From a virus (taxonomy: Duplodnaviria > Caudoviricetes): a stretch of 37,422 bases of DNA. Shown here one piece after another: positions 730 to 36,335 of this stretch (positions are counted from its first letter, which is position 1; every line of letters begins with the position of its first letter). The translations under genes and the position numbers were made by a program. The stretch covers positions 1 to 37,422 of the IMG/VR virus record IMGVR_UViG_3300006790_000048; one strand, 5' to 3'. Below the pieces are notes generated by a model. The model had not been told where the DNA came from. It was given only the letters and a program-made list of their open reading frames with translations, and did no database searches.

Positions 730-735
730 GAAGTA
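730..735 (-). promoter_or_regulatory. TACTTC putative late-promoter element
   Basis: 30 nt upstream of ATG 700; one of ten position-conserved copies. Confidence 0.7.
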
Positions 736-765
736 TTTAAAAAAATAAAAAAAGTGGTTTTAGTT

Positions 766-2787
766 CTAAGCGTTTGGCGTAGAAACTATAATGTATGTGT
801 TTGGATCGAGTATATCTACACCAATTCTGTGAGTCCAGACAATATCCCAATATTGACCAGCAATATTCTTTTGGAATTCGATTTCCATCTTTCTTTGTGA
901 GGCTAATCCCCATGATTTGCCTTTAACACAAACAAGGTTTCTATCTGCATTGTTTTGACCTGTCTCCAGTTCATTAGTGACAATAATGTCAATACCATAG
1001 AGTCTTTCCATTTGACCTAATCTGGTTACACTAGAGTTACCGATTTGGGTATATTCGGATAGTGAGGTTGAAGAAATAAGGCTCTCAAAAGCTCTTGGGC
1101 TGATGAAGGCGATCAAGTTACCTGGAGAGGTATCTTGTCCTAATTCTTCAAGGTATCTCTTACTAAATGTAAGACCATCCTCGTCTAGTTCCCCATCTGC
1201 ATCTTCTTCTGTTGCGTTAGTTGTTGCTGCACCATCAGAACCTCCAATGTGGTAAGGTGCTGTGGTAACGCCACCAAAGTCGTGATCTGTTGCACCTAAG
1301 TCTTGGAGAATGAGTCTGTGTTCATCCCTAATGGCTTCTAATCTTGCAGTTTCTCTAATTGCGTTAAGGAAACTTGCAGGATAGTCCTCTAGTTCTGCTT
1401 TCTCGACTGTTTGTCTCCATCCTCTGATTGCACAGGTAACATCGATAGATGTTAAGGTATGGGTTGCTGCTGTGATATCTGTAGTTGGGCTTTCAGTAAT
1501 TGCACCTGCATCTGGTACAGTGATTCTGTAGAATCTTGCTGTATTTTGTCCTGTTGGAACAGCTTGGAATTGACCATACTGTCTAATAGGAATTGCAGTT
1601 TTTGCACCTAATTGAATTGAAATGTTGGATGCTTGTTTAACACCTGGAATGGTTCCTGATGTTGAAATTGCTTCTTGAACACTTCCACTACCACTTTGAT
1701 GTTGGGTGGTATGTTGTGAAATCCATCCTTCTTTTTCGAGTACCAATTTGTTATAGCCTGTTTCAAAGAGTTTATCCATGAAAGCTTTGGCTTGATCTTC
1801 AGTAAAGTCTTCCTCTACGATTGAATCGTTAGTGGATTCTGCTACTTCAGATTTTGGTGCCCATGCTTCGGAAACAGTTTGAATAACTGCTTTCAAAGTG
1901 TCGGAATTGGATTTTTCAATTCTTTCGGCTACTTTCTCAGAGACATCTTCTTTGGTTGCTTCAGGAGTTGGAGCTGGTGCTTCGACTTCTTTGGCTACTT
2001 CAGATTTTGTTTCTGCTTTGCCTACTTCTACTTCGCCATCGGTTTCGATGGTTACTTTGACTTTTTCCTCAATATTCTTTTCAGAAATTTCGTTTGTCAT
2101 GTGATCTTCACTTGAAGGATTTTGTATATTGGAAGTATTATCAGTATTAGTTGGAGCTAATTGTGGTTCAGCCTGTGGTATTGGTGTTGGTGGTTGTATT
2201 AATGCCATAAATGCTTTTTCTAAATTATTCAAAAGTTCTTGAGCCTTTCTTTCATTATCTTCTGGACTCATATCAGGGTTCTTTTTTACAATAGATGCTC
2301 TGATATCTTCTAATAGTCTACTACTATCTAGGAATCCTCCAAAACTGTTTGGTATAGGAACCTGTTCATCTTCGTATAATACTTGGAAATGCTCTACTAC
2401 TGCTAGAGTTGATTCTGGAATTCCAGGTGTTTTAACTATGCTTAATTCTAATATGTCTTTAAGAACTGGAGAGTTTAGACATTTCTCTCTTTGAGCATCA
2501 CATAATTCTCGTTGTTCTAATACTGATGCACCTATTGATACTTGATACTGTTGATTATCTAATTCCTTTTGCCATCCCTCATCTTGTACTTCTGCTTCAT
2601 ATCTTACTTGAGATTTCTCTTCATCATAAGTGAATTGTACTGTACCGATATTGGTTTCTGGGCCACCATGTTCTACTCTTAATGGTACTTGAACCCCATC
2701 GAATTTCTTTAACTCTTCAGTATCATAATATATGCCATTTCTACTCTCTCTTGGCATTAATGCTATTCCTGCAATGCGTTTAGCCAT
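766..2787 (-). CDS. Prohead protease - scaffold - HK97-fold major capsid protein fusion
   Basis: N-terminal HK97-type protease motifs (SRNG.YY, PLRVEH, VSIG, ELSIVKTPG), an acidic/Pro-rich linker, and a C-terminal MCP-like region (ISPRAFESL, ERLYGIDIIVT, RIGVDILDP). Confidence 0.88.
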   Translation of the reverse strand: MAKRIAGIALMPRESRNGIYYDTEELKKFDGVQVPLRVEHGGPETNIGTVQFTYDEEKSQVRYEAEVQDEGWQKELDNQQYQVSIGASVLEQRELCDAQREKCLNSPVLKDILELSIVKTPGIPESTLAVVEHFQVLYEDEQVPIPNSFGGFLDSSRLLEDIRASIVKKNPDMSPEDNERKAQELLNNLEKAFMALIQPPTPIPQAEPQLAPTNTDNTSNIQNPSSEDHMTNEISEKNIEEKVKVTIETDGEVEVGKAETKSEVAKEVEAPAPTPEATKEDVSEKVAERIEKSNSDTLKAVIQTVSEAWAPKSEVAESTNDSIVEEDFTEDQAKAFMDKLFETGYNKLVLEKEGWISQHTTQHQSGSGSVQEAISTSGTIPGVKQASNISIQLGAKTAIPIRQYGQFQAVPTGQNTARFYRITVPDAGAITESPTTDITAATHTLTSIDVTCAIRGWRQTVEKAELEDYPASFLNAIRETARLEAIRDEHRLILQDLGATDHDFGGVTTAPYHIGGSDGAATTNATEEDADGELDEDGLTFSKRYLEELGQDTSPGNLIAFISPRAFESLISSTSLSEYTQIGNSSVTRLGQMERLYGIDIIVTNELETGQNNADRNLVCVKGKSWGLASQRKMEIEFQKNIAGQYWDIVWTHRIGVDILDPNTYIIVSTPNA
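2132..2137 (-). promoter_or_regulatory. Intragenic TACTTC element ahead of in-frame ATG 2100 (Met230) of the capsid gene
   Basis: Minus strand reads TAATACTTCCAATATACAAAATCCTTCAAGTGAAGATCAC-ATG; spacing of 32 nt equals that at the portal gene. Confidence 0.65.
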
Positions 2788-2815
2788 GTTTATTTTGATA
2801 TATTAAGGATATAGA

Positions 2816-2821
2816 GAAGTA
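2816..2821 (-). promoter_or_regulatory. TACTTC putative late-promoter element
   Basis: 29 nt upstream of ATG 2787. Confidence 0.75.
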
Positions 2822-2830
2822 TTAACTATT

Positions 2831-6244: not shown

Positions 6245-6250
6245 GAAGTA
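6245..6250 (-). promoter_or_regulatory. TACTTC putative late-promoter element
   Basis: 32 nt upstream of portal ATG 6213. Confidence 0.7.
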
Positions 6251-6251
6251 A

Positions 6252-6608
6252 TTAATCGTACTCAAAGTACACTTCATCGGATCCATTAACACCTACACAG
6301 GTTAATCGTGATCCAGATACCTCTAATCTTAATCTAACCTTGTATGTTCCTTGTACTGCTGGTGTAGCTCCTGTTGCAAACTTTACCAAGAATGTTCCAT
6401 CTGCATTTAATGTTAAATTCTGTGTTGTTGAGAATATTGTGTCTCCTTGTTGGTTGATTAATCTGAATGTTCCTGTAAAACTGGATATGTCTCTTGCTGT
6501 TGCAAAGGTATTCTCATCATATACGGTTCCTGATAGGTCATAAGTTGCACTATCTGTAAAATCCCCTTGTGCCCATGTCTTTTGATCCATATCTAGGTAC
6601 AAAACCAT
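6252..6608 (-). CDS. Putative virion protein, BppU-N-like Ig fold
   Basis: DISSFTGTFRL...ADGTFLVKF...GTYKVRLRL pattern; CACTTC variant element 29 nt upstream (6637-6642). Confidence 0.5.
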   Translation of the reverse strand: MVLYLDMDQKTWAQGDFTDSATYDLSGTVYDENTFATARDISSFTGTFRLINQQGDTIFSTTQNLTLNADGTFLVKFATGATPAVQGTYKVRLRLEVSGSRLTCVGVNGSDEVYFEYD

Positions 6609-6639
6609 AACCTTTATATAGTTAGTACCATAATAGGAA

Positions 6640-6987
6640 GTGTTGTTAGCCGTTCATACACCTGCTCCAGTTTATCCTATGGTTCGTAACGAACAAATAG
6701 ATGAATTGGAGCAGCAACATTGTTATGAGATAGTTACATGGCCTGCTTATTTTAGTGATGAATACTGTATGAATAGTCTACGCAAGAATACTGATCCTAA
6801 TGTTATATTATATGTTGCTCTCATGAGAGGTATTACCCCTATCGTTACTATTGGAGACCACAAGTCTTTTGTAGCAGATTTCAGCAAGCCTAAAGAATCT
6901 AAAAAACATAGTAGGAAACTACCTAGTAGAACTGACAAGATAAAAAAGAAATTAGAAGATACATTTAAGAGAAAAAGAAATGCATAA
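6640..6987 (+). CDS. Hypothetical protein with basic C-terminus, divergently transcribed
   Basis: TTTATATA box at 6613-6620; Lys/Arg-rich tail. Confidence 0.65.
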   Translation: MLLAVHTPAPVYPMVRNEQIDELEQQHCYEIVTWPAYFSDEYCMNSLRKNTDPNVILYVALMRGITPIVTIGDHKSFVADFSKPKESKKHSRKLPSRTDKIKKKLEDTFKRKRNA

Positions 6988-7135: not shown

Positions 7136-7350
7136 AGTGTCATCGTAATTGCTATTAAAGGTATAATCTCTAACAAGTCAATTCCATATAACAGAAAGTC
7201 TGTTACAGGATGGACATGGATAAAGTAGTTGCTGTCCAGGAAGAAACACTCTCCTGCTGTTATTGTATGTGGTATCTGTAGATATAGTATTACTGCTGTT
7301 ACTAGTAATGACTCTGTTACTCTCCTGTTATACCAAGCCCAGAATCCCAT
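7099..7350 (-). CDS. Small membrane protein
   Basis: Two hydrophobic segments; TAATG-coupled to terL. Confidence 0.65.
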   Translation of the reverse strand: MGFWAWYNRRVTESLLVTAVILYLQIPHTITAGECFFLDSNYFIHVHPVTDFLLYGIDLLEIIPLIAITMTLYARFKASISSS

Positions 7351-8795
7351 TATCCTACTCCTGCCAATGTTCCTGAACCCATCTTATAATAGTACATTGC
7401 AAGCAAGAAAGCATCTCCAAGGTCGAATGTGTTTACCTTGGTTTTGTTGGTTCCGCCTTTTGCGTTATACTTGATTGTCATGAGTTGCATTTTAAGTTTC
7501 TTGAAACTTGGATGTATCTTGACTTCCTGAAAGTCTACGGCATTTGCAGCATAGTTTAGCATCTTCTCTCCGTATTGCAAGAATGATACGTTCTGTACGT
7601 TCATCATGTATTTGTCTCTAAGGTCTCTGATACCTTCAGCCCATGAGCCGTCTACAAATAGACGTTTGGTTCTATATTTTTTGCTGAGTTCGTTAATCTT
7701 GTTTACGATATCAATGTAAGATTCACGTTCAAAAGACTCTGCATAGATTACAGCCTTTTTCCCCTTGTCCTTTTGCATAATGCATATTCCAAATTCGGAG
7801 CTTCCAAAGCCAGGATCAATTCCAATAACTCTATCATTAGTATTATCATCTATCTTCCAACTATACTCCTCTTGACAGCAGGCTTCAATTCCCTCTGGAC
7901 TAAAGATATCTCCAACGTTCTTACCCCATACTCCAAGATACTCCCTTTCATAACTTCTTGCATTGCTTGCTTCCTCTAAATATTTCGGCGTAAAGATCGA
8001 TGTTTTCGTTTGAGGATCTTTTTGTAAGCCTGCCTCAACATAGTAATGAAATCTTTCGTATATTGTTTTCTCTGCTCCTGTGGTAGGTTCTCCCATAATA
8101 TCGTAGAAGAATCCTTTAGGCTCTTCTCCTGCTGTGCTAACCCAAATAACCCAACTATTAGACTTTCCAATATATCTCTCTCCAACGGTTCTAACGATGC
8201 TATCGTCTCTGAGCTTAAAGAAAGCTGCTTCGTCGCCAAAGAATACGCTAACTTTTGGTTTACCTCTAGCAGAGTGGATGTTATTCGACGGATAGCATTT
8301 AACTCTGCTTCCGTTGATGTCGAGTTCGTAGGCTCCATGATCTATATATCCCAAACCTTTCTTAGTTAAAAAACCCTTCGCTCTAAGTATCAAATCTTGT
8401 GCCAAATCAACGTTTGGGCCAGTAATAATCATGGCTTCCTTGCCACTAAACCAAGGATCTACCAATGATTTCCATACTATCCATAATAATATAAATTCTG
8501 TTAATCCCAAACCCGTTGCTTTGTAAACGCAAAAAGACTTGCAAGAGTTTGTCCTGTTTTCTTCCAATTCCTCCATTTGCATCTTGTTTAGAATCTCCTG
8601 TTCATACGCATAACAAGGATGATATACACCATCACGTTCTGGGCCACCAAGCGGATGAAATATGAAATGCCAAAAACAGCAATGCTCGTCTTCTGACAAC
8701 GAGTCATTACACCAGAACCTTTCAGGTACGATAGGTACGTCTCTGGTTGCAGCGTTACTTAGTGCTGCTAGAGTTGCCTTACTCGCTAACCCCAT
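7350..8795 (-). CDS. terL: Terminase large subunit
   Basis: Variant Walker A (YKATGLGLTE), Walker B (FFGDEAAFF), coupling motif (VSTAG), RNase H-like nuclease motifs (IGIDPGFG, DLGDA). Confidence 0.92.
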   Translation of the reverse strand: MGLASKATLAALSNAATRDVPIVPERFWCNDSLSEDEHCCFWHFIFHPLGGPERDGVYHPCYAYEQEILNKMQMEELEENRTNSCKSFCVYKATGLGLTEFILLWIVWKSLVDPWFSGKEAMIITGPNVDLAQDLILRAKGFLTKKGLGYIDHGAYELDINGSRVKCYPSNNIHSARGKPKVSVFFGDEAAFFKLRDDSIVRTVGERYIGKSNSWVIWVSTAGEEPKGFFYDIMGEPTTGAEKTIYERFHYYVEAGLQKDPQTKTSIFTPKYLEEASNARSYEREYLGVWGKNVGDIFSPEGIEACCQEEYSWKIDDNTNDRVIGIDPGFGSSEFGICIMQKDKGKKAVIYAESFERESYIDIVNKINELSKKYRTKRLFVDGSWAEGIRDLRDKYMMNVQNVSFLQYGEKMLNYAANAVDFQEVKIHPSFKKLKMQLMTIKYNAKGGTNKTKVNTFDLGDAFLLAMYYYKMGSGTLAGVG

Positions 8796-9282
8796 TGTCC
8801 TCTACCTTTGGCATTGGTCTTGCAGGTCTGAGCTTTGCACGTTCCATCTTTAGTTTCTTAACCTGTAATGGTAATGCTGAATCTTGTAACATCTTGAATG
8901 AATCCAGTTTAATCTCATGTCTTGTCCTTGCAAACTTTAAGTATAGTTCCTTGTCCATTTCATCCAGACCTTTATCCCTTTCATTCTTCATGATTTCCTC
9001 TAGTGCTGCAACGTCATTCTCAAAGCCTAAACGTGCCCTTATGAACTCTCCAATATAGGTATCCATTGCATCCTCGTTTATGCTGTTTTCCATTTCCTCC
9101 TGGATTTGTTTAACATGGTAGTGTATGCCTGCTGGACTAGTCTTTCCAAACTTGGACATTAGTTCTGTGTCCTTGTTTATTTGGTCGCTAATCTGATATG
9201 CATTTCTGCCAAAGAACATCCATTGGCTGCTTACATATTCGTGTAACTCTTTGGATTTCTCTGGGCCTCTACTTCTTGTCAT
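8779..9282 (-). CDS. terS: Probable terminase small subunit (likely start ATG 9282)
   Basis: Immediately upstream of and overlapping terL; N-terminal HTH-like segment then helical region. Start revised because 9269-9436 holds a separate ORF. Confidence 0.65.
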   Translation of the reverse strand: MTRSRGPEKSKELHEYVSSQWMFFGRNAYQISDQINKDTELMSKFGKTSPAGIHYHVKQIQEEMENSINEDAMDTYIGEFIRARLGFENDVAALEEIMKNERDKGLDEMDKELYLKFARTRHEIKLDSFKMLQDSALPLQVKKLKMERAKLRPARPMPKVEDNGVSE

Positions 9283-9436
9283 AAAATCCCCTATAAGCTT
9301 CATCCATTTCGCATTGCAAACATGAATCAAAAAAACAAGGTTTATTACATCTTCTACAAGTATTAATATCTCGTAAATAGTCCTTGCCACTAAACGACTT
9401 TTTTAATCCATTAATAAAATTAGTTAAGAAACCCAA
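9269..9436 (-). CDS. 55-aa Zn-ribbon microprotein (TTG start; not in ORF track)
   Basis: MGFLTNFINGLKKSFSGKDYLRDINTCRRCNKPCFFDSCLQCEMDEAYRGFYDKK; overlaps both neighbours. Confidence 0.65.
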   Translation of the reverse strand: MGFLTNFINGLKKSFSGKDYLRDINTCRRCNKPCFFDSCLQCEMDEAYRGFYDKK

Positions 9437-10203
9437 TCTTTCAAAAACCTCTCCACCACGTACTTAGCTCCATGTACTATTAAAAGCTTTCGGTCTAGCA
9501 GGTTTCCATCCTTATCATGGACATCCATACCCAAAGCCAAAGCCTGTAATCCTGTGCACGAAGGGTATGGTAAGGTTCTTGGCGGATCATCGTATGTGAA
9601 CTTTATGTCAACATAGTCAGTATATTGTGTAAGAAAATCAGGCATATCCTGATATCTTATGAAATTGTTATTGTTTCTCTCAAAGTATTCTATATCTGGG
9701 TATCTTTCCCTTATCCTTTTTTCTATAAACTTTCTGTCATTTTTACGGTTTATGCAAAGATATGTTCTTTTCTCTTCGGGTTCGTATTTTATGTCATAAA
9801 ATAATTCCAAGTCTACCATGTTTGGCAAGTATGTTGCGTTAGGCATTTGCTCCCACAAGTCCTGGGTAGTAATATAACATGGCCATTTACTATATTTGTC
9901 AATATCCTTTTGAGCCATGTTCCTGAGTTTGGAGCCATGAAATACGAAGATAAGTTTGCTTGGTGTAAAATGATATTTGAATTCTACAAAGTCGTGAATG
10001 ATAACATAGTCATATTCAGGTTCTAATTCTATAGCCCTTCTAATCAGGTCGTTAACATCACTGAACTTTTCTGTTACGCCATAATGTTCTGTAAAGCCAA
10101 ACGGATCCAGATTGTCTAATTGTAATACCTTGTCACCAGCACCATACTTGCACATCATTTCAGCAATTCCAGCCATTGAGAACAAGTGTAGGAATCGAGG
10201 CAT
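9424..10203 (-). CDS. Glycosyltransferase, GT-B/GT4-like (likely start ATG 10203)
   Basis: MPRFLHLFSMAG, VIIHD, FVFHGSKLR, YLPNMVDLELF, SCTGLQALALG. Confidence 0.7.
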   Translation of the reverse strand: MPRFLHLFSMAGIAEMMCKYGAGDKVLQLDNLDPFGFTEHYGVTEKFSDVNDLIRRAIELEPEYDYVIIHDFVEFKYHFTPSKLIFVFHGSKLRNMAQKDIDKYSKWPCYITTQDLWEQMPNATYLPNMVDLELFYDIKYEPEEKRTYLCINRKNDRKFIEKRIRERYPDIEYFERNNNNFIRYQDMPDFLTQYTDYVDIKFTYDDPPRTLPYPSCTGLQALALGMDVHDKDGNLLDRKLLIVHGAKYVVERFLKDWVS

Positions 10204-10240: not shown

Positions 10241-10573
10241 ATGCAATGTTGTAATTTTAACTGCGGTGCACACGCATGGGGTAAACGCATAAGATGTGCA
10301 AATTGCAGAAGAAAAGATATCAACTTGTGTTGTGACTGTGATGCTCCTACGACTCGCAGGGCTTTTTACTGTACAAGCTGTAGAGACAACCACAGAGAGA
10401 CAATGTTAAAGGCCTTTCATGAAGGCAGAGCAGGAGAGTTTCCTGAATGTCAAATGTGCTTTAAGACATTGCCTAAACGACACATGAAACGCTGTCTTGA
10501 CGGAGAGTGTAAAAGAATATACACTAACCTGGATCAAGTAGTTAGGCGTGGTAGAAAATATATCACAAACTAA
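10241..10573 (+). CDS. Multi-CxxC zinc-finger protein
   Basis: Several CxxC pairs in 110 aa; followed by an oligo-T terminator. Confidence 0.75.
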   Translation: MQCCNFNCGAHAWGKRIRCANCRRKDINLCCDCDAPTTRRAFYCTSCRDNHRETMLKAFHEGRAGEFPECQMCFKTLPKRHMKRCLDGECKRIYTNLDQVVRRGRKYITN

Positions 10574-12663: not shown

Positions 12664-12834
12664 TTACAAGTCCTTTAATTCTAAGGTTGGATTTTCCATT
12701 AATGCATCGTTGATATCATGTGCATTAGTTCTTTGTTGTCCTTGTGTGATTTTAGCCTCATAAGCTTTTGCATTTTGTGCTTTTTGCTCTGTGGTTAAAT
12801 CATCACAATTCCAATTTAAGAAATCTGTTGACAT
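12664..12834 (-). CDS. 56-aa putative early microprotein (not in ORF track)
   Basis: MSTDFLNWNCDDLTTEQKAQ...LELKDL; own promoter and T-run terminator. Confidence 0.75.
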   Translation of the reverse strand: MSTDFLNWNCDDLTTEQKAQNAKAYEAKITQGQQRTNAHDINDALMENPTLELKDL

Positions 12835-12932
12835 ATCTATAGTATGTCTTATCCCTTTAATATATCTTTCTCTATGTTAAACGTTGATGTTTATCGTTGT
12901 TGACTTTGATAAAAATAAGAAAAAAGTATAGA

Positions 12933-13085
12933 TTAAAGCTCTATACCTTTGAGTTTGGCATATTGTGCCTGGTGTTTACAATGGTCTTTTTTGCCAGTAG
13001 CCACACGATATTTATAGTCGTTGCAAGTACAATGGCCTATTGTCACTGTATACCATTCTTGTTTGTTGCTAGATTGAATCTGCAT
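12933..13085 (-). CDS. 50-aa stand-alone SWIM zinc-finger protein (not in ORF track)
   Basis: WYTVTIGHCTCNDYKYR...CKHQ matches the SWIM CxC...CxH signature; own promoter. Confidence 0.8.
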   Translation of the reverse strand: MQIQSSNKQEWYTVTIGHCTCNDYKYRVATGKKDHCKHQAQYAKLKGIEL

Positions 13086-13110
13086 ACTCTAGTATATTCT
13101 ATTCCTTATA

Positions 13111-13395
13111 TTAATCTTCCTCTGTGATTGTTAACTCTCTAACATATCCGTATTTTGGTTTTTTACTACCTTTGTAAATATTACCAGATTTATAAATTTG
13201 TTCTAATTGCTCTTTACTATATTTTGGTATATCCTCAACGTGATATTGTTTACCGTTCTTAGTCCATGTAATACCTCCGTCTCTGTATACTTTATCAGAG
13301 ACCTCTTTTTTGATAGCATTGATTACTAAATCTCTGCTTTGGCCTAAATATCCTGCATTGCCAGTTTTACAGATTGTTATATCAAACTTAATCAT
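13111..13395 (-). CDS. Putative early hypothetical protein
   Basis: 94 aa; preceded by the repeated promoter. Confidence 0.75.
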   Translation of the reverse strand: MIKFDITICKTGNAGYLGQSRDLVINAIKKEVSDKVYRDGGITWTKNGKQYHVEDIPKYSKEQLEQIYKSGNIYKGSKKPKYGYVRELTITEED

Positions 13396-13434
13396 ACCTA
13401 TACTATGTATTATTCCTTATATTAATCTTTCTTT
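13396..13434 (-). promoter_or_regulatory. Repeated BRE-TATA leaderless promoter
   Basis: 35/39 identical to 13756-13794; related copies at 12835-12872 and 13086-13122. Confidence 0.85.
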
Positions 13435-13458
13435 TGTGGACTTTGATAAAAAAAGATA

Positions 13459-13581
13459 TTAGTTGTTAAAATGGCTAAAGCATTTTTTACTGTTATCCAT
13501 AAAACATCTAATACGATTGCAGTTTTTATTAGTACATTGCATTTCTTTTGGGCAATGATCATCAAACCAAATTTCATTCAT
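13459..13581 (-). CDS. 40-aa Cys-rich microprotein (not in ORF track)
   Basis: MNEIWFDDHCPKEMQCTNKNCNRIRCFMDNSKKCFSHFNN; GGAG upstream. Confidence 0.6.
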   Translation of the reverse strand: MNEIWFDDHCPKEMQCTNKNCNRIRCFMDNSKKCFSHFNN

Positions 13582-13584
13582 GAT

Positions 13585-13755
13585 TTATCTCTCCAATAAC
13601 TCCTTTTCTTCATTGGTTATCACTCTTGCATCTTCGTTTTGAATAAATGCTATTTGCTCAAGTTGTGTGAACTCATGGAGGCTTTGACCCATTCTTTCAG
13701 TTGTAAATTCATTTGCTTTGATTTCTGCTTCAATTCGTGCTTGTGATTTTGTCAT
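13585..13755 (-). CDS. 56-aa acidic putative early microprotein (not in ORF track)
   Basis: MTKSQARIEAEIKANEF...KELLER; repeated promoter upstream. Confidence 0.75.
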   Translation of the reverse strand: MTKSQARIEAEIKANEFTTERMGQSLHEFTQLEQIAFIQNEDARVITNEEKELLER

Positions 13756-13794
13756 ACCTATACTATATCTTATCCCTTATATTAACCTTTCTTT
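13756..13794 (-). promoter_or_regulatory. Repeated BRE-TATA leaderless promoter
   Basis: AAAGAAAGGTTAATATAAGGGATAAGATATAGTATAGGT-ATG. Confidence 0.85.
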
Positions 13795-13823
13795 ATGATA
13801 AAAAATAGAAAAAATGTGTTAGT

Positions 13824-14030
13824 TTAAGCTAACATCATTGTGAGTGCCATTAATGCATATAATGCAATAGATACGGCACTTAGACCAATTCCCAGGATTA
13901 GGCCAGTTCTAGCAGTATCTGGGTTGGTGTCCTTGTTGATTGCCCAAAATATCACGCCTCCAATGATACCAAAGAAAATTGGTAAAAGCCATTGGATAGG
14001 GCTTATTTTGGTCTCTTGTCTAATAGACAT
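13824..14030 (-). CDS. Small two-TM membrane protein
   Basis: WLLPIFFGIIGGVIFW...ARTGLILGIGLS; own TATA promoter. Confidence 0.75.
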   Translation of the reverse strand: MSIRQETKISPIQWLLPIFFGIIGGVIFWAINKDTNPDTARTGLILGIGLSAVSIALYALMALTMMLA

Positions 14031-16893: not shown

Positions 16894-17563
16894 TGATCTT
16901 CTCCCTGTAATGTCTTATCTCGTTTATTTCCCTTTGAATTAGTTTATCTGCATCCTTATCCAAATCCAAATCGTGTAAACATTCCTCCATCTCTAATCCT
17001 ACATGAGTGTACCATTCTGGATGTGTATTCATGTGGACATAATCACATTCGATAAATGTATCGTGTGGGTTTTCTCTCCAGTTATGTCCAGAGTCACTGA
17101 TATATTTGAATCTTGTATCATAGTTAGGACAGTATATGTCTACCTCGTCTAGTTTACTTATGAGTTCCTCATCTACCTCTACTCCCATTACAGGTTTGTG
17201 GAATGTTACTGATATGCCATTAAGTTCCCCTATGTAGCTTTCAAGTAATCTTGTCTGCATAACTATCTCAGATACCATTCTGTCATTGCCATCTTTGCAT
17301 AGTGACGGATCATAATGTAGTCCGATACCCATACCTAATTCCCTGATAGTTTTAATTCGTTGAATGTTTGTATCACTTAATGCGTTATAGAATGGAGATG
17401 TTAACAGTATATAGTATGTACTGTGAAGGTTCTTGTCTGCTTCTATCTCTGCTAACTCTACAGCCTTTTTGATTGATATGTCAACATCGTGACGTAAGAA
17501 GAACGTACAGTTCTCATCCATTCCCTCTTTGACTAAGTCCAGATATGATTGATATGTCCACAT
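16886..17563 (-). CDS. Polysaccharide deacetylase-like (CE4/NodB fold) protein
   Basis: FFLRHDVD, GIGLHYD, TFHKP, YISDSG, NTHPEWY motifs. Confidence 0.8.
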   Translation of the reverse strand: MWTYQSYLDLVKEGMDENCTFFLRHDVDISIKKAVELAEIEADKNLHSTYYILLTSPFYNALSDTNIQRIKTIRELGMGIGLHYDPSLCKDGNDRMVSEIVMQTRLLESYIGELNGISVTFHKPVMGVEVDEELISKLDEVDIYCPNYDTRFKYISDSGHNWRENPHDTFIECDYVHMNTHPEWYTHVGLEMEECLHDLDLDKDADKLIQREINEIRHYREKIND

Positions 17564-18588
17564 TATTGTAAGTCATCCAAAAACGTAGGATTCTTTTGTA
17601 AAAAGATATCACATTGCATACATTCTTCTTTATCAATGTGTGCATATATTAGTCTTTTGATTGCAGCGATTCCTAATTGTTTCTTAGTCTTTGGATTTTG
17701 TAATAACATCTTACCCATTCTACATATATCATTGTCTACTTCTACCAGGTATTTGATCCTTTTGTCTAATTCTTTTAGATCTTCATTAGTCTTAATTGCA
17801 TATTTCAAACCTTTTGTGGTCATTGGTCTGACTACTCTGTGACATTCGTGTTTACATTTCTCTGCTCTACAGTTCTCATGAATACATTCCCTGCATTTAT
17901 CCTCATCATCTTTGACTTCCCATACTGTCTTAAACTCCCATTCTCCTGAGATACTGTTCTTTAGACTTTGTGTACTGTTTGCACCTAATAGGATAGCATC
18001 ATAACTGTTTGCATCTGTAGCAAACCTAGAGTCACGTACCATCTTGACTTTCTTACTATAGTCTTTACATAGTTTATCCTCATGTTTCTCCTCATGTTCA
18101 TTCTCCATCTTGATAGCCAACATTGCCAATTCCTCTGCTACGTGGCATTTCCATGTATATTTCTCCATGTCTGGTATTCTTGCTTTAGTGATAATATCCT
18201 TTGCAGGTGTGTTCTTTCTTTCATATTCCTTAATCTTTTCTTTTAACTCATCAATATGAGATTCTATGTAATTGTCGTTTACTCTTACAGGTGCATCATA
18301 TCCCTTGTCTACTTCTGCATCCTTGTATTCTGGTTGAACGTAAGTGTATAATGCTGTCTTGCCAAATGACCAATTATATTTCTTTCTTAGTCTGTTTAGG
18401 ATTCTTGCCACATCTTTTATCTCAGGATCATTGATACCTTCTATCTTGGCCATGTTCTTTATCTCATGACTGTCTATATTATCTGCTAGGTTCTTTGCTA
18501 GTTTCTGTACCAAAGGCTTTATATCCTTCTTGACAGAATCAGAAATTTTACTAATCTTATCGATAAGATTCTGTGCTTCTTGATTCAT
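17563..18588 (-). CDS. 341-aa putative DNA-binding protein (HTH-like N-terminus, Cys/His clusters)
   Basis: IKDVARILNRL...FGKTALYTYV; CREC...C...C.HECH, CMQC; own TATA promoter. Confidence 0.6.
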   Translation of the reverse strand: MNQEAQNLIDKISKISDSVKKDIKPLVQKLAKNLADNIDSHEIKNMAKIEGINDPEIKDVARILNRLRKKYNWSFGKTALYTYVQPEYKDAEVDKGYDAPVRVNDNYIESHIDELKEKIKEYERKNTPAKDIITKARIPDMEKYTWKCHVAEELAMLAIKMENEHEEKHEDKLCKDYSKKVKMVRDSRFATDANSYDAILLGANSTQSLKNSISGEWEFKTVWEVKDDEDKCRECIHENCRAEKCKHECHRVVRPMTTKGLKYAIKTNEDLKELDKRIKYLVEVDNDICRMGKMLLQNPKTKKQLGIAAIKRLIYAHIDKEECMQCDIFLQKNPTFLDDLQ

Positions 18589-19052: not shown

Positions 19053-19066
19053 TGCATAGTATTATA

Positions 19067-19498: not shown

Positions 19499-19530
19499 AA
19501 TATTATAATAAAAAAAAGGATATTTAAATG

Positions 19531-21747: not shown

Positions 21748-22192
21748 TTTTTCTCTCCACAGTACATATTGTGTCATTATGCTCTGCACCATGAGCAACT
21801 AATAATATTCTGGTTAATTCAAATCCTCTACTTTTACCCATTCCTCCAGAGTTATATGCAAATGTAATTACTTTGCCATTTGGTTTTATCACTCTAGCCA
21901 TTTCATTTTTGACTTTGGCTATCCATCCACTTGATGTATGCCATCCTGTGCAAATACCACCGTTCTTTTTGTAATGTTCTGATACCTGTCTTTTTGTATA
22001 TGGAGGATCTAACACTCCATACATAGCAGATTCATCTTGTAATGTTTTATAATAATCAAAACACTCTACTTTACCTTCAAATGGAAATGGATCAATATAC
22101 TCATCTCCTATCTCCTCTTTGATTAGTTGAGCAATAGGTTTGATTTGGAATGTTCGTTTGTTAGGCATTGCCCATACTCTTTCTATATCCAT
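21740..22192 (-). CDS. Small amino-(N6A/N4C) DNA methyltransferase
   Basis: IDPF, LDPPY catalytic motif, ARVIKPNG. Confidence 0.8.
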   Translation of the reverse strand: MDIERVWAMPNKRTFQIKPIAQLIKEEIGDEYIDPFPFEGKVECFDYYKTLQDESAMYGVLDPPYTKRQVSEHYKKNGGICTGWHTSSGWIAKVKNEMARVIKPNGKVITFAYNSGGMGKSRGFELTRILLVAHGAEHNDTICTVERKIG

Positions 22193-23850
22193 GAGTATTT
22201 ACCTCCACTGTCTAATAGGTTTCCTGTTGATCTAAGTTTGGCTATCTGTCTTAATGCTGATTCTTCTGTTGGGAACCATGTTGATTTCTCCATAAGTTTT
22301 GATATTGCCTGTGCTTCTGTTACAGGTTCTTTGAATACGTGTTGGATATATCCTGTTTTGTCAAATGAGTTTGCAATGCTTGCGTTCTTTTGACCTGGTG
22401 TATTCATACCTAGTGTGTGTAATGATGTGTTTAGCATTTCTATGGCACTCTTTGCGTGTCCTATCTCTGCTGTTTCATCTAAGTGTAATCTTGCGTATGC
22501 TTGTGTTAGTCTTATCAAATCCTCATACGTTCTGATATCTACTGCTAATCCTCCCTCTTTTTGATCTTCCTTTCTAAGATCACTCCACCATTTCAATAAG
22601 ATATCATCTACCTCTTCAGGTATTACAGGGTTTATTGTCTTTGCATATATTATGAATTTCTTTAGCATATCTGCATCTAACTCTGGTTTGAGTTCTCCTC
22701 TTCTTACCTTCATTATATGTTTTGCTATTAGTAAGTCTTCTCCTTTTTCTGGAGTATCTCTTACCAAGAATATTAATCCGAATCTTGACATGATTGATTC
22801 AGGCAATGTGACATTCTCATTGATAGATAACTCTGGGTTCCATCTGCTTTTCTTTGGGTTACCTGCTGCAATGATTGCTACCTTGACCTCCCATGTAATA
22901 TCAATGCCTATCTTTCTTAGACTAAATTTCTGTGACTCCATGACTTCGTGACAATATGTTCTGTCAGAGTCGTTCATCTTTTCTATCTCGTCTAGTGCTG
23001 CTATTCCACCATTGCATAGTGTTACGGATCCCGGCTTTCCTATACGAGTTCCGTCACTAAGATTATCTACACCGCCGAATAACCCTGCTCCACTAGCGGA
23101 TTTACCTGATACATAGTCTGACTTTGGTATAATGTTCGTTACGAACTTTAGTAATTGAGTCTTGGCTACACCTGGATCTCCTAGTAGTAATGTGTTTATG
23201 TCTCCTCTTGCTGTATCTGTCTCTACTCCACCTAGACAAGTTAGCAGTAAGGCCTCCTTGATATCTACCATATTGTAAATGTGTGGAGCAAAAGATGATA
23301 TGAGTTTGGTCTTGTCCAAATCCTTAAAGTATGCTATCTCTTCTTCTGTTGGTATGATAGGCTTGTCATCTGTCTTTGCAAATTTCATTACGTCAAAGTG
23401 TCTATGATATGTTAGATCCTTTGGGTTCTTTTTTCTTGATCTAAGTGTTCCTCTCATGTTTAGTTTTACACCTGGATTCAATTCATTAATATCATCTCCA
23501 TATAGGAACCCTGTTAGATGTGTTGGGTTTGCTACGCCTTGCTCTGTAAGTAGTACCTTTCTTAGTTGTCCTTTTGTATTCTGATGGATATACATTGGTA
23601 TGTTACAGTCCTTGCATATTGTTTTAGTTGGCATATCTCTCCAGTCATCAAAGTCTTCAAGATGTGTAAACTGTTTCTCATTGGTACAGTTACTACATTT
23701 GAATACTACAAATCTTGAATAGTGTTCTACCTCACTAGAACCTGCTACTATAGTCTGTAATAAAATATCATTCTGATTCTCATCTGTTGGTCTTAACTCA
23801 GCAAGCTTCATTAGCCTTACTGGATCGTCTCCGTTCTCTATAACTTGCAT
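22183..23850 (-). CDS. mcm: MCM replicative helicase
   Basis: C4 Zn finger, RGDINTLLLGDPGVAKTQ, AALDEIEKM, AAGNP, SRF arginine finger. Confidence 0.96.
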   Translation of the reverse strand: MQVIENGDDPVRLMKLAELRPTDENQNDILLQTIVAGSSEVEHYSRFVVFKCSNCTNEKQFTHLEDFDDWRDMPTKTICKDCNIPMYIHQNTKGQLRKVLLTEQGVANPTHLTGFLYGDDINELNPGVKLNMRGTLRSRKKNPKDLTYHRHFDVMKFAKTDDKPIIPTEEEIAYFKDLDKTKLISSFAPHIYNMVDIKEALLLTCLGGVETDTARGDINTLLLGDPGVAKTQLLKFVTNIIPKSDYVSGKSASGAGLFGGVDNLSDGTRIGKPGSVTLCNGGIAALDEIEKMNDSDRTYCHEVMESQKFSLRKIGIDITWEVKVAIIAAGNPKKSRWNPELSINENVTLPESIMSRFGLIFLVRDTPEKGEDLLIAKHIMKVRRGELKPELDADMLKKFIIYAKTINPVIPEEVDDILLKWWSDLRKEDQKEGGLAVDIRTYEDLIRLTQAYARLHLDETAEIGHAKSAIEMLNTSLHTLGMNTPGQKNASIANSFDKTGYIQHVFKEPVTEAQAISKLMEKSTWFPTEESALRQIAKLRSTGNLLDSGGKYSWI

Positions 23851-24062
23851 GATTGTATATCGTACTCCTTATTTATATATCTTTCTCTGTTACACTTGCT
23901 GTGTGGTTTTGAACGTGTGATGATTTTACAGCAAGGACATATTACTTTGTCTAATGAATAATAGACTTCACACTTTGTGCATCTTCTATGATTATTATAA
24001 ATTGGTCTTTTCACAAATTCTGATTTGTATCTGTTACAGATACCTATACATTGCTTGACCAC
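23838..24062 (-). CDS. Small Zn-finger protein resembling a thaumarchaeal family
   Basis: CIGIC.RYK...RCTKCEVY...CPCC...RSKP pattern, recalled from Nitrososphaerota proteins. Confidence 0.75.
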   Translation of the reverse strand: MVKQCIGICNRYKSEFVKRPIYNNHRRCTKCEVYYSLDKVICPCCKIITRSKPHSKCNRERYINKEYDIQSCKL

Positions 24063-24653: not shown

Positions 24654-25316
24654 TTAACCGTTTTGATGTAGTTCGTTAATTTGTGTTACGAATAAATCCC
24701 CTGCTGATAGGGTAAATGCTGTAAATGTAACTCTAGCGTGAATTGAGTTAGCGTTAGATACGTGCCAATGTACTCCTGATTCTGTGATAACTACACCTGC
24801 TGCACTAACTGTAGAGTCATCCCATACCATTCCATACTTTGCTGTTTGTGATGCTACTTTTCTTTGTCCTGCTGATGCATAAGCTAATCTAGCATAAGAT
24901 CCTCCTGTGTCTTCTGTTTCAAGATCAGTGTCAGATTCTGTTGCTGCTGTACTTCCTGTACCAATAGAGTTATGTGTCAATGTTGTAGAGACTTCTCCTG
25001 TATCTCTTTTTGCTGATTCTGTTAATCCGATTAATGTTAATACGTTATCTACGTTCTCAAAGTATGTTGGTCTTGGTGCTGTGTTCTTGTTGTTTACCAA
25101 ATCGTTTGCTATCTCTAACTGTAGTTTCTCTATTTGGTCTATGATATGGCTGCCCTTAAACTGTACTTCATTCTCTTTCCATCCTGATACTGTCCAGACA
25201 TCATGTTTGGTTGCGATATGTTCTGTACCTGGTTCGTAAGATACTGATACAGGATTTGGACTAATACCTTGTGATAGACTTATCGAGTCATAAAGTTTAT
25301 TGGCTAGGTCGTGCAT
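24654..25316 (-). CDS. Tail/baseplate-associated structural protein
   Basis: NVLTLIG...IGTGSTAATESDTDLETE...ITESG...ARVTF pattern of tail-collar-type proteins. Confidence 0.7.
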   Translation of the reverse strand: MHDLANKLYDSISLSQGISPNPVSVSYEPGTEHIATKHDVWTVSGWKENEVQFKGSHIIDQIEKLQLEIANDLVNNKNTAPRPTYFENVDNVLTLIGLTESAKRDTGEVSTTLTHNSIGTGSTAATESDTDLETEDTGGSYARLAYASAGQRKVASQTAKYGMVWDDSTVSAAGVVITESGVHWHVSNANSIHARVTFTAFTLSAGDLFVTQINELHQNG

Positions 25317-25500
25317 TGCTCTTTCCTGCCTTTTCTTTAAAATTGTTAAAGTCTATGTTTGTGAATCCTTGTACTTTAGCTTCAAATTCATCTGCATCCC
25401 ATACAGGAATATTAAATTCTTGGAATTGTCCTTTATCTGATTCTACCACGAATTTAGTAAAGAATGAATCTGCTGTATCGATTCTGTCTACTTTAAACAT
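25297..25500 (-). CDS. Hypothetical protein (likely start ATG 25500)
   Basis: MFKVDRIDTADSFF...; TACTTC at 25529-25534, 29 nt upstream. Confidence 0.65.
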   Translation of the reverse strand: MFKVDRIDTADSFFTKFVVESDKGQFQEFNIPVWDADEFEAKVQGFTNIDFNNFKEKAGKSNARPSQ

Positions 25501-25739
25501 AAGGTTTCTCCACACTGACAGGTCAAAGGAAGTATTCTCTCACTTCTATGAGATCCTGAATTTCCGCATGATTCACACTTGTAATGTTTTAGGATAATCC
25601 AGTTTGCACATTCCTGACAATATCTGTTGTCATTGTCTGGGTTGTAGTTACCCTCATATTCATACTCACTTAACTTGGCTACGTTACATCTGTCACATAG
25701 ATAATAATCCCCTTGATTCTTTCCTTCCCAATAATCCAT
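25488..25739 (-). CDS. Zn-finger protein
   Basis: CDRC, CQEC, CESC, CQC motifs. Confidence 0.65.
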   Translation of the reverse strand: MDYWEGKNQGDYYLCDRCNVAKLSEYEYEGNYNPDNDNRYCQECANWIILKHYKCESCGNSGSHRSERILPLTCQCGETLCLK

Positions 25740-28032: not shown

Positions 28033-28067
28033 ATTAATCCTAGATATTTTATGACAAAGAGAAGTAT

Positions 28068-33324: not shown

Positions 33325-33359
33325 GTTAAATATACCTTATAAATACGGTAGAAGAAGTA

Positions 33360-33905
33360 TTATCCAACTTTTACCTTATGGTTTCCTTGTACTTGTGAGC
33401 CTCTTCTACGCCTAAGAGATATCCTACGTTTTAATTGTCTTCTACCTGTACCTGCTCTTATTAATGTTGCTCTACCTGCAAATGATACACCGCCTGTGAA
33501 TCCTGCTGAAGTTCTTCCTACTTGTTGATATCTTCTACCTTTTCCTAATTTCTTAAAAGCCCTCATATTTTCATGTAGTGCTTCTTTCAATCTATCCATT
33601 ACCATATTTCTAACAATATCATTGACTTTTTTAATGAATGGGTTAGGCAAGTGTCTTATAGTACCAAAGGTATGAAATGATATCAAGTCCTGTTGGTCAT
33701 TGATAATATCCACACCATTCTCACTTTGTTGTACTACCCATCCATCTCTTAATGCTCCTGTGTCTACAGGTGTATTCATTCTAAGTAACCTTAATGATTC
33801 TTCTCCTATCATCTGTAAGAATCTATATTTTACGTTTCCTCCTTTGAATTTGAACTCTTTGAATTGTTGTTTGATTTCATCTAGTCCTTCTACTTCTAAT
33901 GGCAT
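33360..33905 (-). CDS. HK97 gp10-like tail completion protein with Arg-rich extension
   Basis: EVEGLDE...TPVDTGALRDGW...FGT...PNPFI. Confidence 0.8.
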   Translation of the reverse strand: MPLEVEGLDEIKQQFKEFKFKGGNVKYRFLQMIGEESLRLLRMNTPVDTGALRDGWVVQQSENGVDIINDQQDLISFHTFGTIRHLPNPFIKKVNDIVRNMVMDRLKEALHENMRAFKKLGKGRRYQQVGRTSAGFTGGVSFAGRATLIRAGTGRRQLKRRISLRRRRGSQVQGNHKVKVG

Positions 33906-34452
33906 TATCTTCTCCTACTATCTAATTCTTCCTCTTGTTGCAATATAGATAGTATATTCTGGATTTCCATTAGTTTCTCCATTCCTAATTTCTCTTTTAA
34001 TGCGAAAACTTCTGTCCACGATCCAAACCCATTTCTAACCAGGGTTATCATTGGTATTAGTTCTTTGAGTTCTGGGTAGTCTTCGTAAGCTTGCCTTCTT
34101 TCTTTCTCGTCTCTACTTCGTACAAAGCGGACTGCTTGGCTCTTTCTATCGTTCCATAAATTGCTAAAAAAGTGTATACCTCCGCCATTAGTTCTCTGAA
34201 CTCAGGTTCGGTTACACCTGACTCTAATATGTCATCTACTGATACTCCTAATCCTACTTCACAAGTTTTCTCCCACCATTCTTCATCTGTCTGTAGTGCT
34301 TCTGCTTGTGTTAAATCTCCTGCTTGTTCTCTTGCTGCTGCTTCTTTGATTTTCTCTCTAAACCATTTCATATCTTTCATAGATACGTTCTCTGTAACAG
34401 GAATCTCTAAATCTCTAATAATCCATTTCTTCTTAGATGTATCTAAAAACAT
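33905..34452 (-). CDS. Tail assembly chaperone, predicted -1 frameshifted long form (~182 aa)
   Basis: Slippery T-TTT-TTA at 34165-34171; the -1 frame is open to the TAA at 33905-33907, which is TAATG-coupled to the next gene. Confidence 0.7.
34057..34452 (-). CDS. Tail assembly chaperone, short form
   Basis: 131-aa acidic protein just downstream of the tail tube gene. Confidence 0.75.
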   Translation of the reverse strand: MFLDTSKKKWIIRDLEIPVTENVSMKDMKWFREKIKEAAAREQAGDLTQAEALQTDEEWWEKTCEVGLGVSVDDILESGVTEPEFRELMAEVYTFLAIYGTIERAKQSALYEVETRKKEGKLTKTTQNSKN

Positions 34453-34482
34453 AATACCGATAAAGTATTATAGTATATAAAT

Positions 34483-35415
34483 CTATAGGTCAGTACAGGA
34501 TTCTGCTCTAACAGTGATAGATTCAATTAATGCATCTGCTGAGCCTGCTGCGTGAGTGTATGCATAGTCTGTGATAACACAGTTTGCGTATGTTAATGTT
34601 ACAGGTCCTGTTGAATTGAATTTGTAACTTGATGATCTTGCGTTTTTGGCTTCATAATCTGTGTATAATGTAGTTTCATTTGAATTTGTTCCACTGAATA
34701 CATCTGTTGTGTATGTAATGTTTCTGTCAGTTGCTTTGGTATAAGTGATATCAGTTTCTCCGTTTACTGCCATAACTGCCATGTTTCTGTTTACTGTTGT
34801 TGAGAATGAACGTTCTCCATAAGTTACACTGTTCCAAGTGAAAGGATCTGCTCCACCGTCACTATGTACTATTGGTGCTGATGAGGTTTCTGATGTTTGA
34901 TAAACTGGAGTTCCTCCGTTACCATCTGTTGTGTTTGGTACTGTAATATCTTTAGCAATAAATGTCATGTTTTGTTCCCACATTCCTCTTGATACAGATA
35001 ATGTTCCTGATGTTGGTCTGCATCCTCTCATGTGTTGGAAATATTCTGTTCCGTCTAAGTTAAATGAATAAGTGAAAGATAATGAACTGTCTGGGCTGTC
35101 TGCTCCGCCTCCGCTTGCGTTCCATAGATATTTCCATAATGATAAATCTATTGGATTATTTTTAATTGTAAATGCATATAATGATTGTGTCTTAACTGCT
35201 TCAATGACATCTTCTGATCCTAATACTGATACATCCATGTGTTGAACATCTGGTTGAATGTTAATCTCGGTGTTGTTTCCAACTAGTGTAAAGGATGATG
35301 AACTTGGTGTTGCTCCGTATAAAGATGGTGTTGCTACACTGTCTCCTTCTGTAACATATTGTAATTCCTTAACAATATCTCTTTTGGTTGTTACATTGTG
35401 AGCTGAAATTGCCAT
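34483..35415 (-). CDS. Major tail (tube) protein
   Basis: 310 aa, Thr/Ser-rich; LQYVTEG...YGATP N-terminus; TACTTC 29 nt upstream (35444-35449). Confidence 0.8.
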   Translation of the reverse strand: MAISAHNVTTKRDIVKELQYVTEGDSVATPSLYGATPSSSSFTLVGNNTEINIQPDVQHMDVSVLGSEDVIEAVKTQSLYAFTIKNNPIDLSLWKYLWNASGGGADSPDSSLSFTYSFNLDGTEYFQHMRGCRPTSGTLSVSRGMWEQNMTFIAKDITVPNTTDGNGGTPVYQTSETSSAPIVHSDGGADPFTWNSVTYGERSFSTTVNRNMAVMAVNGETDITYTKATDRNITYTTDVFSGTNSNETTLYTDYEAKNARSSSYKFNSTGPVTLTYANCVITDYAYTHAAGSADALIESITVRAESCTDL

Positions 35416-35449
35416 ATCACTAATCTACTAAATTTGTTATAGAGAAGTA

Positions 35450-35971
35450 TTACGCAGTCCTAATCTTGTAGTAAATCATCTTAAGTGTTGCTTGAGATGT
35501 AGGTGTCTGGTCGTCATCTGCTTCAGGTTCCAAACGTTCAAATGGTGGTTCTGAATCCTCAAAGAAAGCTACTTCACTGTCTGCTCCTCCACTCTTAGGT
35601 AATCTTGTTCCTCCATTTGGTCTATTTTGCCATAGGATTCTGTGTACTTCATCTTCTAATTCTAATAATATCTGTAATGATTCTGCTTGAATTTCTAAGA
35701 AACATTCGCATACCCATGCGTGCTTGTCATCTCCATTAACTTCAAACGTATCTGTTTCATATCTTGTTCTACTAGAATAGTTAATCCTAATCTCATTTAT
35801 TTGTGCACCATCTGCTCTTGCTAATTGATCAGGTTCTTCAGTATCACTGATAAAGTTTGGTGTGATAGTGCCTGTGATGTTTGATGCTGTCCAGTTATCT
35901 TCAAGTAATGCCCTTATTGTCTTATCTAAATTTTCTCTTGATCCAGATAAGTTAGTAAATGTTACAGCCAT
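35450..35971 (-). CDS. Probable tail terminator/completion protein
   Basis: Acidic 173 aa directly upstream of the tail tube gene. Confidence 0.6.
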   Translation of the reverse strand: MAVTFTNLSGSRENLDKTIRALLEDNWTASNITGTITPNFISDTEEPDQLARADGAQINEIRINYSSRTRYETDTFEVNGDDKHAWVCECFLEIQAESLQILLELEDEVHRILWQNRPNGGTRLPKSGGADSEVAFFEDSEPPFERLEPEADDDQTPTSQATLKMIYYKIRTA

Positions 35972-36297
35972 TAGGTGTACCAGACATTACCCCATCTGGT
36001 TTGATCTTGAGGTGCTTGATCCATATAATTCTTGAGTAAGACTGCTAATTGGTCATGTATTTGTACTGTTGACAATTCTGTCCTTCTGCCTAAGTTTCTA
36101 AGGATTTCTGAACCTGTAAGGTTAGCAATAGAGTCTATTGCTGTAGGTACAGTTGTAAAGTCACTGTTCCTGTTTAGTATAATGTTAATCATATCTGTTA
36201 CAGTATTCTGTATGGTTGTTACTGTTGCTGGTGTACTAGATTTCGTTCCTCCCCATGCTAATTTCTCCATTTCGTCTGTTGAACCGTACTTGGTCAT
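35971..36297 (-). CDS. Probable head-tail connector/adaptor (likely start ATG 36297)
   Basis: MTKYGSTDEM...helical...VPTAIDSIA, gp6-like layout; TACTTC 30 nt upstream (36327-36332). Confidence 0.6.
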   Translation of the reverse strand: MTKYGSTDEMEKLAWGGTKSSTPATVTTIQNTVTDMINIILNRNSDFTTVPTAIDSIANLTGSEILRNLGRRTELSTVQIHDQLAVLLKNYMDQAPQDQTRWGNVWYT

Positions 36298-36335
36298 AAT
36301 AATGTTTATATAGACCAATGGTAGAAGAAGTATTT

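Follow-up and report, generated by a model that had tools for sequence, protein, structure and literature searches.

Late transcription in phage T4 depends on gp55, a sigma-family protein that works with the bacterial polymerase at a promoter marked by a short word at -10. How do archaeal viruses, which have no RNA polymerase of their own, switch on their virion genes? In a 2017 review (PMC5569661), archaeal viral promoters are described as having clear TATA and B recognition elements (BREs), and most of the characterised regulators of these viruses repress transcription from ordinary BRE-TATA promoters. Here we describe a hexamer, TACTTC, that recurs at a fixed distance ahead of virion genes in a 37,422-nt stretch of viral DNA (the window), which is the whole of IMG/VR record IMGVR_UViG_3300006790_000048. 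On balance we favour the reading that this word, more generally TA[C/G/A]TTC(T), is a start-codon-locked late core promoter of tailed viruses likely infecting ammonia-oxidising archaea, and that a virus-encoded factor reads it. Judging from the sequence patterns set out below, promoter function itself is very probable; that the reader of such a promoter would be viral is probable to a lesser degree.

The position of the word is its most telling property. On the minus strand, 9 of 13 copies of TACTTC have an ATG at +34..37, against a background of 9.3% (binomial p 2.6e-7), and none of the 19 plus-strand copies does. The initial annotation had proposed a positional enrichment test for the element, and when this was carried out none of 100,000 circular shifts reached nine, the maximum being seven. 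Of approximately 209,000 combinations of 6-mer and position window examined at 64 gene starts, the one with TACTTC came first (p 5e-16) and the TATA words ranked below it; this test is less independent, since the starts include those of the annotation itself. Across the window and its relatives, the distance from motif to ATG is 33-38 nt, with a mode of 34. The gap between the motif and the upstream stop codon varies from 0 to 456 nt, or the motif lies inside coding DNA, and its spacing is therefore tied to the ATG and not to the stop.

All ten motif/ATG pairs first reported are present in the sequence, all on the minus strand, with the first base of the hexamer 34-37 nt before the ATG; the motif starts given earlier are the low coordinates, i.e., the last hexamer base on that strand. 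Two copies belong to the 673-amino-acid protease-major capsid fusion (766..2787, minus strand; PHROG major head match), one at 2816-2821, 34 nt before its ATG at 2787, and one at 2132-2137 inside the protease-capsid frame, 37 nt before an internal ATG at 2100. The copy at 730-735 follows a T-run behind the capsid stop and lies 35 nt before ATG 700, the start of a 73-amino-acid protein with a hydrophobic C-terminus that we would guess to be a lysis protein. The portal ATG at 6213 (PF06074) is preceded at 37 nt by the copy at 6245-6250, and ATG 6608 at 34 nt by a CACTTC variant at 6637-6642, which overlaps head-to-head the TATA promoter of the open reading frame (ORF) beginning at 6640. In the tail region, copies stand at 35444-35449, 34 nt before the tail tube ATG at 35415 (PF18906 at E 4.5e-4, under its cut-off); at 33354-33359, 35 nt before ATG 33324 of the likely tape measure gene; at 28061-28066, 34 nt before ATG 28032, a distal tail region gene with no family match; and at 25529-25534, inside ORF 25488-25739 and 34 nt before ATG 25500, which opens a 67-amino-acid frame followed by the tail-related 24654-25316. 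The tenth, at 36327-36332, lies 35 nt before ATG 36297 of a likely head-tail adaptor and within the first codons of the opposite-strand ORF that begins at 36318. The earlier description of all these units as virion-structural or lysis genes holds firmly for the capsid, portal and tail tube, which have family matches; for the others it is drawn from position or synteny, and no functional match was obtained for 25500, 6608 or 700. The motif genes are probably expressed late. The structural unit starting at 34452 uses a canonical TATA box instead of the motif, and the terminase genes (7350-9390) have neither a copy nor a near-miss.

Conservation was assessed in 44 capsid-bearing loci, counting distinct upstream regions and excluding rows without an in-frame ATG; this set contained no relatives of 28032 or 25500. 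For six motif genes, 110 of the 111 distinct upstream regions have the motif at -33..-38: 30 of 30 for the protease-capsid ATG at 2787, 27 of 27 for the internal capsid start at 2100, 19 of 20 for ORF 700, 14 of 14 for 36297, 13 of 13 for the tail tube at 35415 and 7 of 7 for the tape measure gene at 33324. None of the 85 regions ahead of seven others has it (4458, 4754, the terminase, 239, 35971, 34452 and 33905), and the motif is conserved while its flanks have diverged. It is also present at the portal start (6213) among the relatives listed, the copy before 25500 recurs in the relative G004, and in G001 the motif lies 35 nt before a gene similar to 28032. Five further records, three of them with approximately 50% tail tube identity, have 10-12 spaced copies each, a few of which are chance or internal matches, and a few copies in relatives head genes without a structural label. 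Pooling 62 copies gives the consensus WW-TA[C/G]TTC-T-n-W-T-W-A, with the information concentrated in seven positions and the flanks free.

The motif reaches well beyond these close relatives. In Nvie-Pro1, an element of the cultured soil archaeon Nitrososphaera viennensis with 53% G+C and a capsid protein 29% identical to that of the window, 12 of 16 coding-strand copies of TA[AG]TTCT lie at -33..-40 of a start codon, with three copies on the other strand. A scan with the terminase brought in L309/L310, with five coding-strand copies, and the further motif-bearing lineages G013 and L320 (TAATTCTCT). In the 99.7-kb virus G014 (L375-L379), which encodes two proteins like gene 1 of Nvie-Pro1, GATAGTTC lies 37-42 nt before ten structural-strand genes, and the complete 63.7-kb G015 (L380-L383), which has a related terminase, shows no enrichment of the motif. 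The motif is conserved from marine to soil lineages, conservation in relatives being a check that the initial annotation had proposed. Because soil lineages share it, the element is not specific to the window virus, contrary to what had been thought. As a side observation, the gene preceding the large terminase in G013 carries the motif.

The relation of the word to ordinary archaeal promoter elements is instructive. The canonical BRE and TTTAWATA box reported ahead of early and replication genes are indeed there: in the 23 unit-heading genes that do not carry the motif, the TTTAWATA box starts at -30 (11 genes) or -29 (seven genes), behind a purine-rich BRE. The MCM helicase gene (22183..23850, minus strand), identified by family match, is an example of this contrast class. 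TACTTC covers -34..-29 and is followed by a conserved T at -28; it thus occupies the space in which the 3' portion of a BRE and the 5' portion of a TATA box would otherwise lie. The placement of the motif at the BRE position was thus right as far as the overlap with the BRE goes and incomplete in that the motif also enters the TATA register, straddling the BRE/TATA junction. Scored with a TATA matrix trained on the canonical promoter set, motif promoters have a median of 0.5, against 7.8 for canonical promoters and -2.7 for random DNA; 3 of the 10 copies reach a score of 3-6. Shine-Dalgarno-like words are found before 15 of the 25 operon-internal genes, before 2 of the 10 that carry the motif and before none of the 21 with a TATA box (p 0.06); the scarcity of such words before motif genes suits leaderless messages.

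Several neighbouring features of the promoter landscape deserve mention in their own right. Early promoters at 12664-14030, 18630-19779 and 22183-23850 have a purine-rich BRE and a TATA box with AAGG(G/A)ATAA directly downstream, and ATAAGG was the third-ranked word in the word test (p 1e-11); this extended consensus is possibly a second virus-specific element. The gene of the TATA-driven unit at 34452 (34057-34452) is a likely tail assembly chaperone, which has its canonical promoter in relatives too, amid a motif-driven tail region, and the next ORF, 33905-34051, is a possible frameshift partner. Two motif promoters face, head-to-head, the starts of opposite-strand ORFs, those beginning at 6640 and 36318 (6608-6680 and 36280-36340), and the AT-rich box at approximately -13 of the late gene 6608 is the TATA box of the ORF at 6640. 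It is possible that these facing promoters are mutually exclusive.

The copy inside the protease-capsid frame offers a second line of argument. A fused frame with an internal ATG at +34/+37 of the motif is found in 34 of the 44 capsid loci, always at 34 or 37 nt and always in one frame, and Nvie-Pro1 has a copy 37 nt before the internal Met of its own protease-capsid fusion. The internal copy encodes Thr-Ser in the marine viruses and Ser-Ser in Nvie-Pro1; it is therefore the DNA, and not the peptide, that is conserved. The copy at 2132-2137 probably serves as a promoter from which capsid protein is made free of the protease, and the motif would in this way reveal a conserved internal start that yields capsid protein from inside the fusion. 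Public RNA runs, which had been found with the protease-capsid gene itself, were examined as contigs, which cannot rank genes or place transcript starts, and we do not count the following as evidence. Eight contig placements from five runs had high depth across the internal-capsid part and little or no coverage of the protease half, and one exactly matching contig ends at 2103, the predicted start, with others ending at 2085, 2092 and 2185. The contigs do place the virus group of the window in marine RNA libraries. Capsid-region contigs of a related clade (L001-L005; L003 7046-8491) were seen at depths of 200-900 in marine RNA runs of four studies.

The window is likely a complete, circularly permuted genome, although its record is classed as linear, since its ends (1-7 and 37416-37422) have seven bases in common and ORF 239->3 runs on into the open frame 37420->37178 at the opposite end. 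Family matches identify the terminase, portal, protease-capsid fusion, tail tube and MCM helicase, and by its MCM and best matches the virus is archaeal. Among 50,697 phage records, the capsid and terminase have a single match, Nvie-Pro1 (29% and 33%), and a host among the marine ammonia-oxidising archaea is therefore probable. A scan of genome contigs gave no provirus in a named archaeal genome, and scans of viral contigs with the Nvie-Pro1 capsid or a gene-1 alignment gave nothing. None of the 64 ORFs of the window matched a sigma factor family and no viral polymerase was seen; the host RNA polymerase presumably transcribes the virus. Outside the virion genes, surface-sugar modification-like genes lie at 9424-10203, 16109-17563 and 36529-37221, one a hexapeptide acyltransferase by Pfam and the others deacetylase-like and glycosyltransferase-like by eye only.

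What might read the motif? The initial annotation recognised no TFB or TBP homologue, and family searches of the window and six relatives gave no match to either: the TFB cyclin fold (PF00382) had no match in the window or five relatives, while four archaeal controls were positive, and TBP (PF00352) had none in five records. Four candidate factors had been put forward. Three of them (6640-6987, 36318-36515 and 10241-10573) were dropped because tblastn and profile searches, for which such short proteins are hard to trace, found them only in G003/G004 or in G004, the one or two closest relatives, and the motif is in all. The fourth, ORF341 (17563..18588, minus strand; 341 amino acids), survives and is our lead candidate; it has a canonical TATA promoter of its own. 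The only non-virion genes found in all six marine genomes are those for MCM, TerS, ORF341, a zinc finger protein and a 72-amino-acid HExxH protein (20393-20611), the last of which is also kept in G013. ORF341 occurs in 8 of 10 records searched and in all six that are at least 90% complete, four records having been picked by ORF341 itself.

ORF341 forms a closed family, with 42 matches among 1.84 billion proteins. Its model is all-helical, with a confident N-terminal helix-turn-helix-like domain and uncertain packing (predicted template-modelling score (pTM) 0.32), and the protein has conserved Cys/His clusters. The Foldseek comparison suggested earlier as a check for likeness to TFB or TBP gave, for ORF341, no match at E<=0.001 in PDB or BFVD, with sigma rows appearing only at E >4. 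The best hit of a VIA fold search had a Z of 4.5 and effectively covered residues 1-92, and a PDB sequence search and an Atlas search of ORF341 returned nothing. In other motif-bearing lineages, proteins of approximately 280-380 amino acids are encoded upstream of the terminase, belonging to family C in G013 and L315 and to the Nvie gene-1 family in L309/L310, L312 and G014. Family C aligns with the ORF341 profile over 79 N-terminal columns (probability 80%, E 1.4e-5; reversed decoy 0.9%) and with the Nvie gene-1 family over 127 C-terminal columns (probability 13%, E 0.002; reversed decoy 0.2%), and it is plausible from these weak-to-moderate links that the three form one superfamily. The gene-1 family model (pTM 0.34) gave only leads in Foldseek and Atlas searches, with non-significant rows for TFIIB at E 1.6 and 2.8. 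A resemblance of this model to the four-helix bundle of filamentous archaeal virus coat proteins (VIA Z 9.0, root-mean-square deviation 3.3, 82 aligned) fell under the caution level for helical bundles and was not used. The runner-up, fitting nearly as well, is the CxxC zinc finger ORF of 74 amino acids (23838..24062, minus strand). It was not found in Nvie-Pro1 or in the partial loci of L312 and L314-L321, and G015, which has no motif, has neither this protein nor ORF341, family C or gene-1 proteins. The zinc finger is in nearly all motif-bearing records, and co-occurrence therefore cannot separate it from ORF341. If the reader is viral, we would still put ORF341 somewhat ahead as the factor.

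We therefore picture the late switch as follows. Host TBP and TFB would start canonical BRE-TATA promoters early, that of ORF341 among them. A viral protein, for which ORF341 is the candidate, would then accumulate and bind to TACTTC, which spans the BRE/TATA junction, and it would either bring in TBP/TFB or take their place on the host polymerase. The polymerase would start at or just before the ATG of approximately ten virion units, giving leaderless or near-leaderless messages, and the internal copy would yield capsid protein in excess of the protease fusion. In a bolder version, ORF341, family C and Nvie gene 1 would make up a new family of initiation factors which, from ocean to soil, take the place of TBP and/or TFB on the polymerase of the host at a TATA-independent late promoter; we consider this version rather doubtful.

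A number of observations weigh against a virally read late promoter. The relatives are not independent samples of conservation. Motif promoters exceed random DNA when scored as TATA boxes (p 0.006), and RNA contigs bridge the internal copy at depths of 178 and 202. L314-L319 encode a family C protein and have a single clear copy of the motif, at 31 nt. ORF341 and the Nvie gene-1 family, compared directly by profile, reach a probability of at most 1%, and family C bridges the two through different halves of the protein. The zinc finger is found in G001-G005, G011/12, G013, G014 and in host loci. In Nvie-Pro1, gene 1 is split over two frames (its homologues have 274-366 amino acids) and MCM is missing, and the motif is clean. 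Finally, our host control, which argues against a common host promoter class with the motif, is a redundant and local sample from a soil and not a marine host.

A first alternative is that the element is a late promoter read by a host protein, available late or under stress, and to this we give a minor but real share of the probability. Ammonia-oxidising archaeal hosts have several TFB paralogues, and a TFB or TBP paralogue, or an activator like Sta1, could serve. The word is nearly constant across viruses whose candidate factors barely align, and Nvie-Pro1 keeps it with neither an intact candidate nor replication genes. The bounds of Nvie-Pro1 (L045 1253-21371) are defined, because its insertion site is empty in the soil contigs L116 (3266-5839) and L117, with cobJ near the genes that flank the other end. 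Its clean motif beside a split gene 1 suits either a host reader or recent decay, and is the best argument for the former; elements such as Nvie-Pro1 may be domesticated (PMC6563490), which would favour a host reader too, and Sta1 is a precedent for a host activator of viral promoters (PMC1635249). Against this stands the host control, which covered 80 soil loci around cobJ (886 kb; 2,574 distinct upstream 80-mers): TTTAWA has its peak, 61, at -34..-31 (5-34 elsewhere), whereas TASTTC shows no peak, the two bins of interest having counts of 0 and 3 and the rest 0-6. In Sulfolobus, moreover, TFB1 and TFB2 promoters share near-identical TATA boxes and have similar BREs (bioRxiv 10.64898/2026.09.06.749720).

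Less probable, and in our view improbable, is that these are weak ordinary promoters, with a degenerate TATA box that the basal machinery uses once templates multiply and with TACTTC as a repressor or tuning site. The motif does have a residual AT-rich tail, T-n-W-T-W-A at +6..+11, in keeping with the TATA score above that of random DNA; the late repeats of halovirus HF2 work in uninfected cells (PMC8707807), and characterised archaeal viral regulators mostly repress, as noted above. However, when BRE and TATA are scored together, motif promoters are no better than random DNA (p 0.27). The starts at 25500, 33324 and 36297 have no TATA-like tail, in agreement with the initial annotation that several copies do not have a good TATA box after them, and T/C tracts follow the copies in Nvie-Pro1. 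An asymmetric word with spacing held tightly within one helical turn suits a core element better than an operator.

An RNA-level signal, for processing, termination or translation on polycistronic late messages, is more improbable still. Four of the ten copies begin 0-1 nt past the upstream stop codon, in Nvie-Pro1 6 of the 12 spaced copies take their first three letters from that stop codon and lead into T-tracts (6 of 12 do not, by hand count), and the contigs that span the internal copy would fit. Yet it is the downstream ATG, at exactly the archaeal promoter distance, and not a stop codon that sets the spacing. The copy at 6642 lies 456 nt, and that at 36332 lies 196 nt, away from any stop on its strand, marine copies begin with TAC, which is not a stop, and 34 nt is far from the ribosome-binding position. 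That the pattern arose by chance, or as a side effect of protein sequence or of base composition, we count as already refuted. The word is short and has 19 copies on the other strand, but no circular shift in 100,000 reached the observed count, a negative control of 114 unrelated viral loci, each picked for one motif match, contains none with more than two spaced copies, and the word is conserved where its flanks have diverged.

We conclude that the motif is real and broadly conserved and is very probably a viral promoter, likely a late one. The initial annotation had proposed a late promoter with a viral factor; the late-gene element is strongly supported by its ATG-locked spacing, strand bias, conservation and contrast with canonical promoters, and a viral rather than a host reader is our inference. 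The analysis defines a late class by its sequence, places it precisely, narrows the candidate factors to a few and points to a copy of the system in a cultured host. In viruses of a globally important group of nitrifiers, the word can also serve in practice to mark virion genes and to pick out true start codons. Should the factor replace TBP or TFB, archaeal transcription would have a further, new way of being initiated, and the promoter and its factor would form an orthogonal pair. We found no description of this motif in the literature, most subscription papers being beyond the reach of our search; the word "promoter" occurs nowhere in PMC11849493, nor in the available excerpt of PMC6563490, which discusses Nvie-Pro1.

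The T4 late promoter likewise consists of one short word at a fixed spacing before virion genes, with the difference that the T4 word lies at -10 and the present one at -34. Canonical archaeal BRE-TATA promoters, read by host TFB and TBP, lie at the same distance from leaderless start codons (PMC5569661), but here a pyrimidine-rich TACTTCT across the BRE/TATA junction, confined to virion genes, takes the place of the purine-rich BRE and TTTAWATA. The GTC motif of SIRV1 and SIRV2, with Sta1, is also a virus-specific cis word near the core promoter, in a system where an activator helps weak promoters; unlike our motif, GTC lies downstream of an intact TATA box and is not late-specific, and Sta1 is host-coded and binds an inverted repeat (PMC5569661; PMC1635249). 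The nearest archaeal case is that of the class II intergenic repeats of HF2, which are a conserved, sequence-defined class in the late morphogenesis arm for which viral regulators have been proposed (PMC8707807). Those are two near-identical AT-rich repeats of 29 bp that probably include a TATA box and that work in cells without the virus (PMC8707807), whereas the window has ten or more copies of 6-7 nt with free flanks and a poor TATA box. In mechanism, the system likely works as does that of the beta- and gammaherpesviruses, in which the late word TATT, an altered core word in the TATA region, is recognised by a viral TBP-like protein (vTBP; BcRF1/ORF24) on the host Pol II, a polymerase of the archaeal type (PMC5113994). 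It differs in that no TBP-family match is found here, the candidate is predicted to be all-helical, and the word departs further from TATA. If our reading is true, the motif and its factor would be an archaeal counterpart of both phage sigma switching and the herpesvirus vTBP, built on a different fold.

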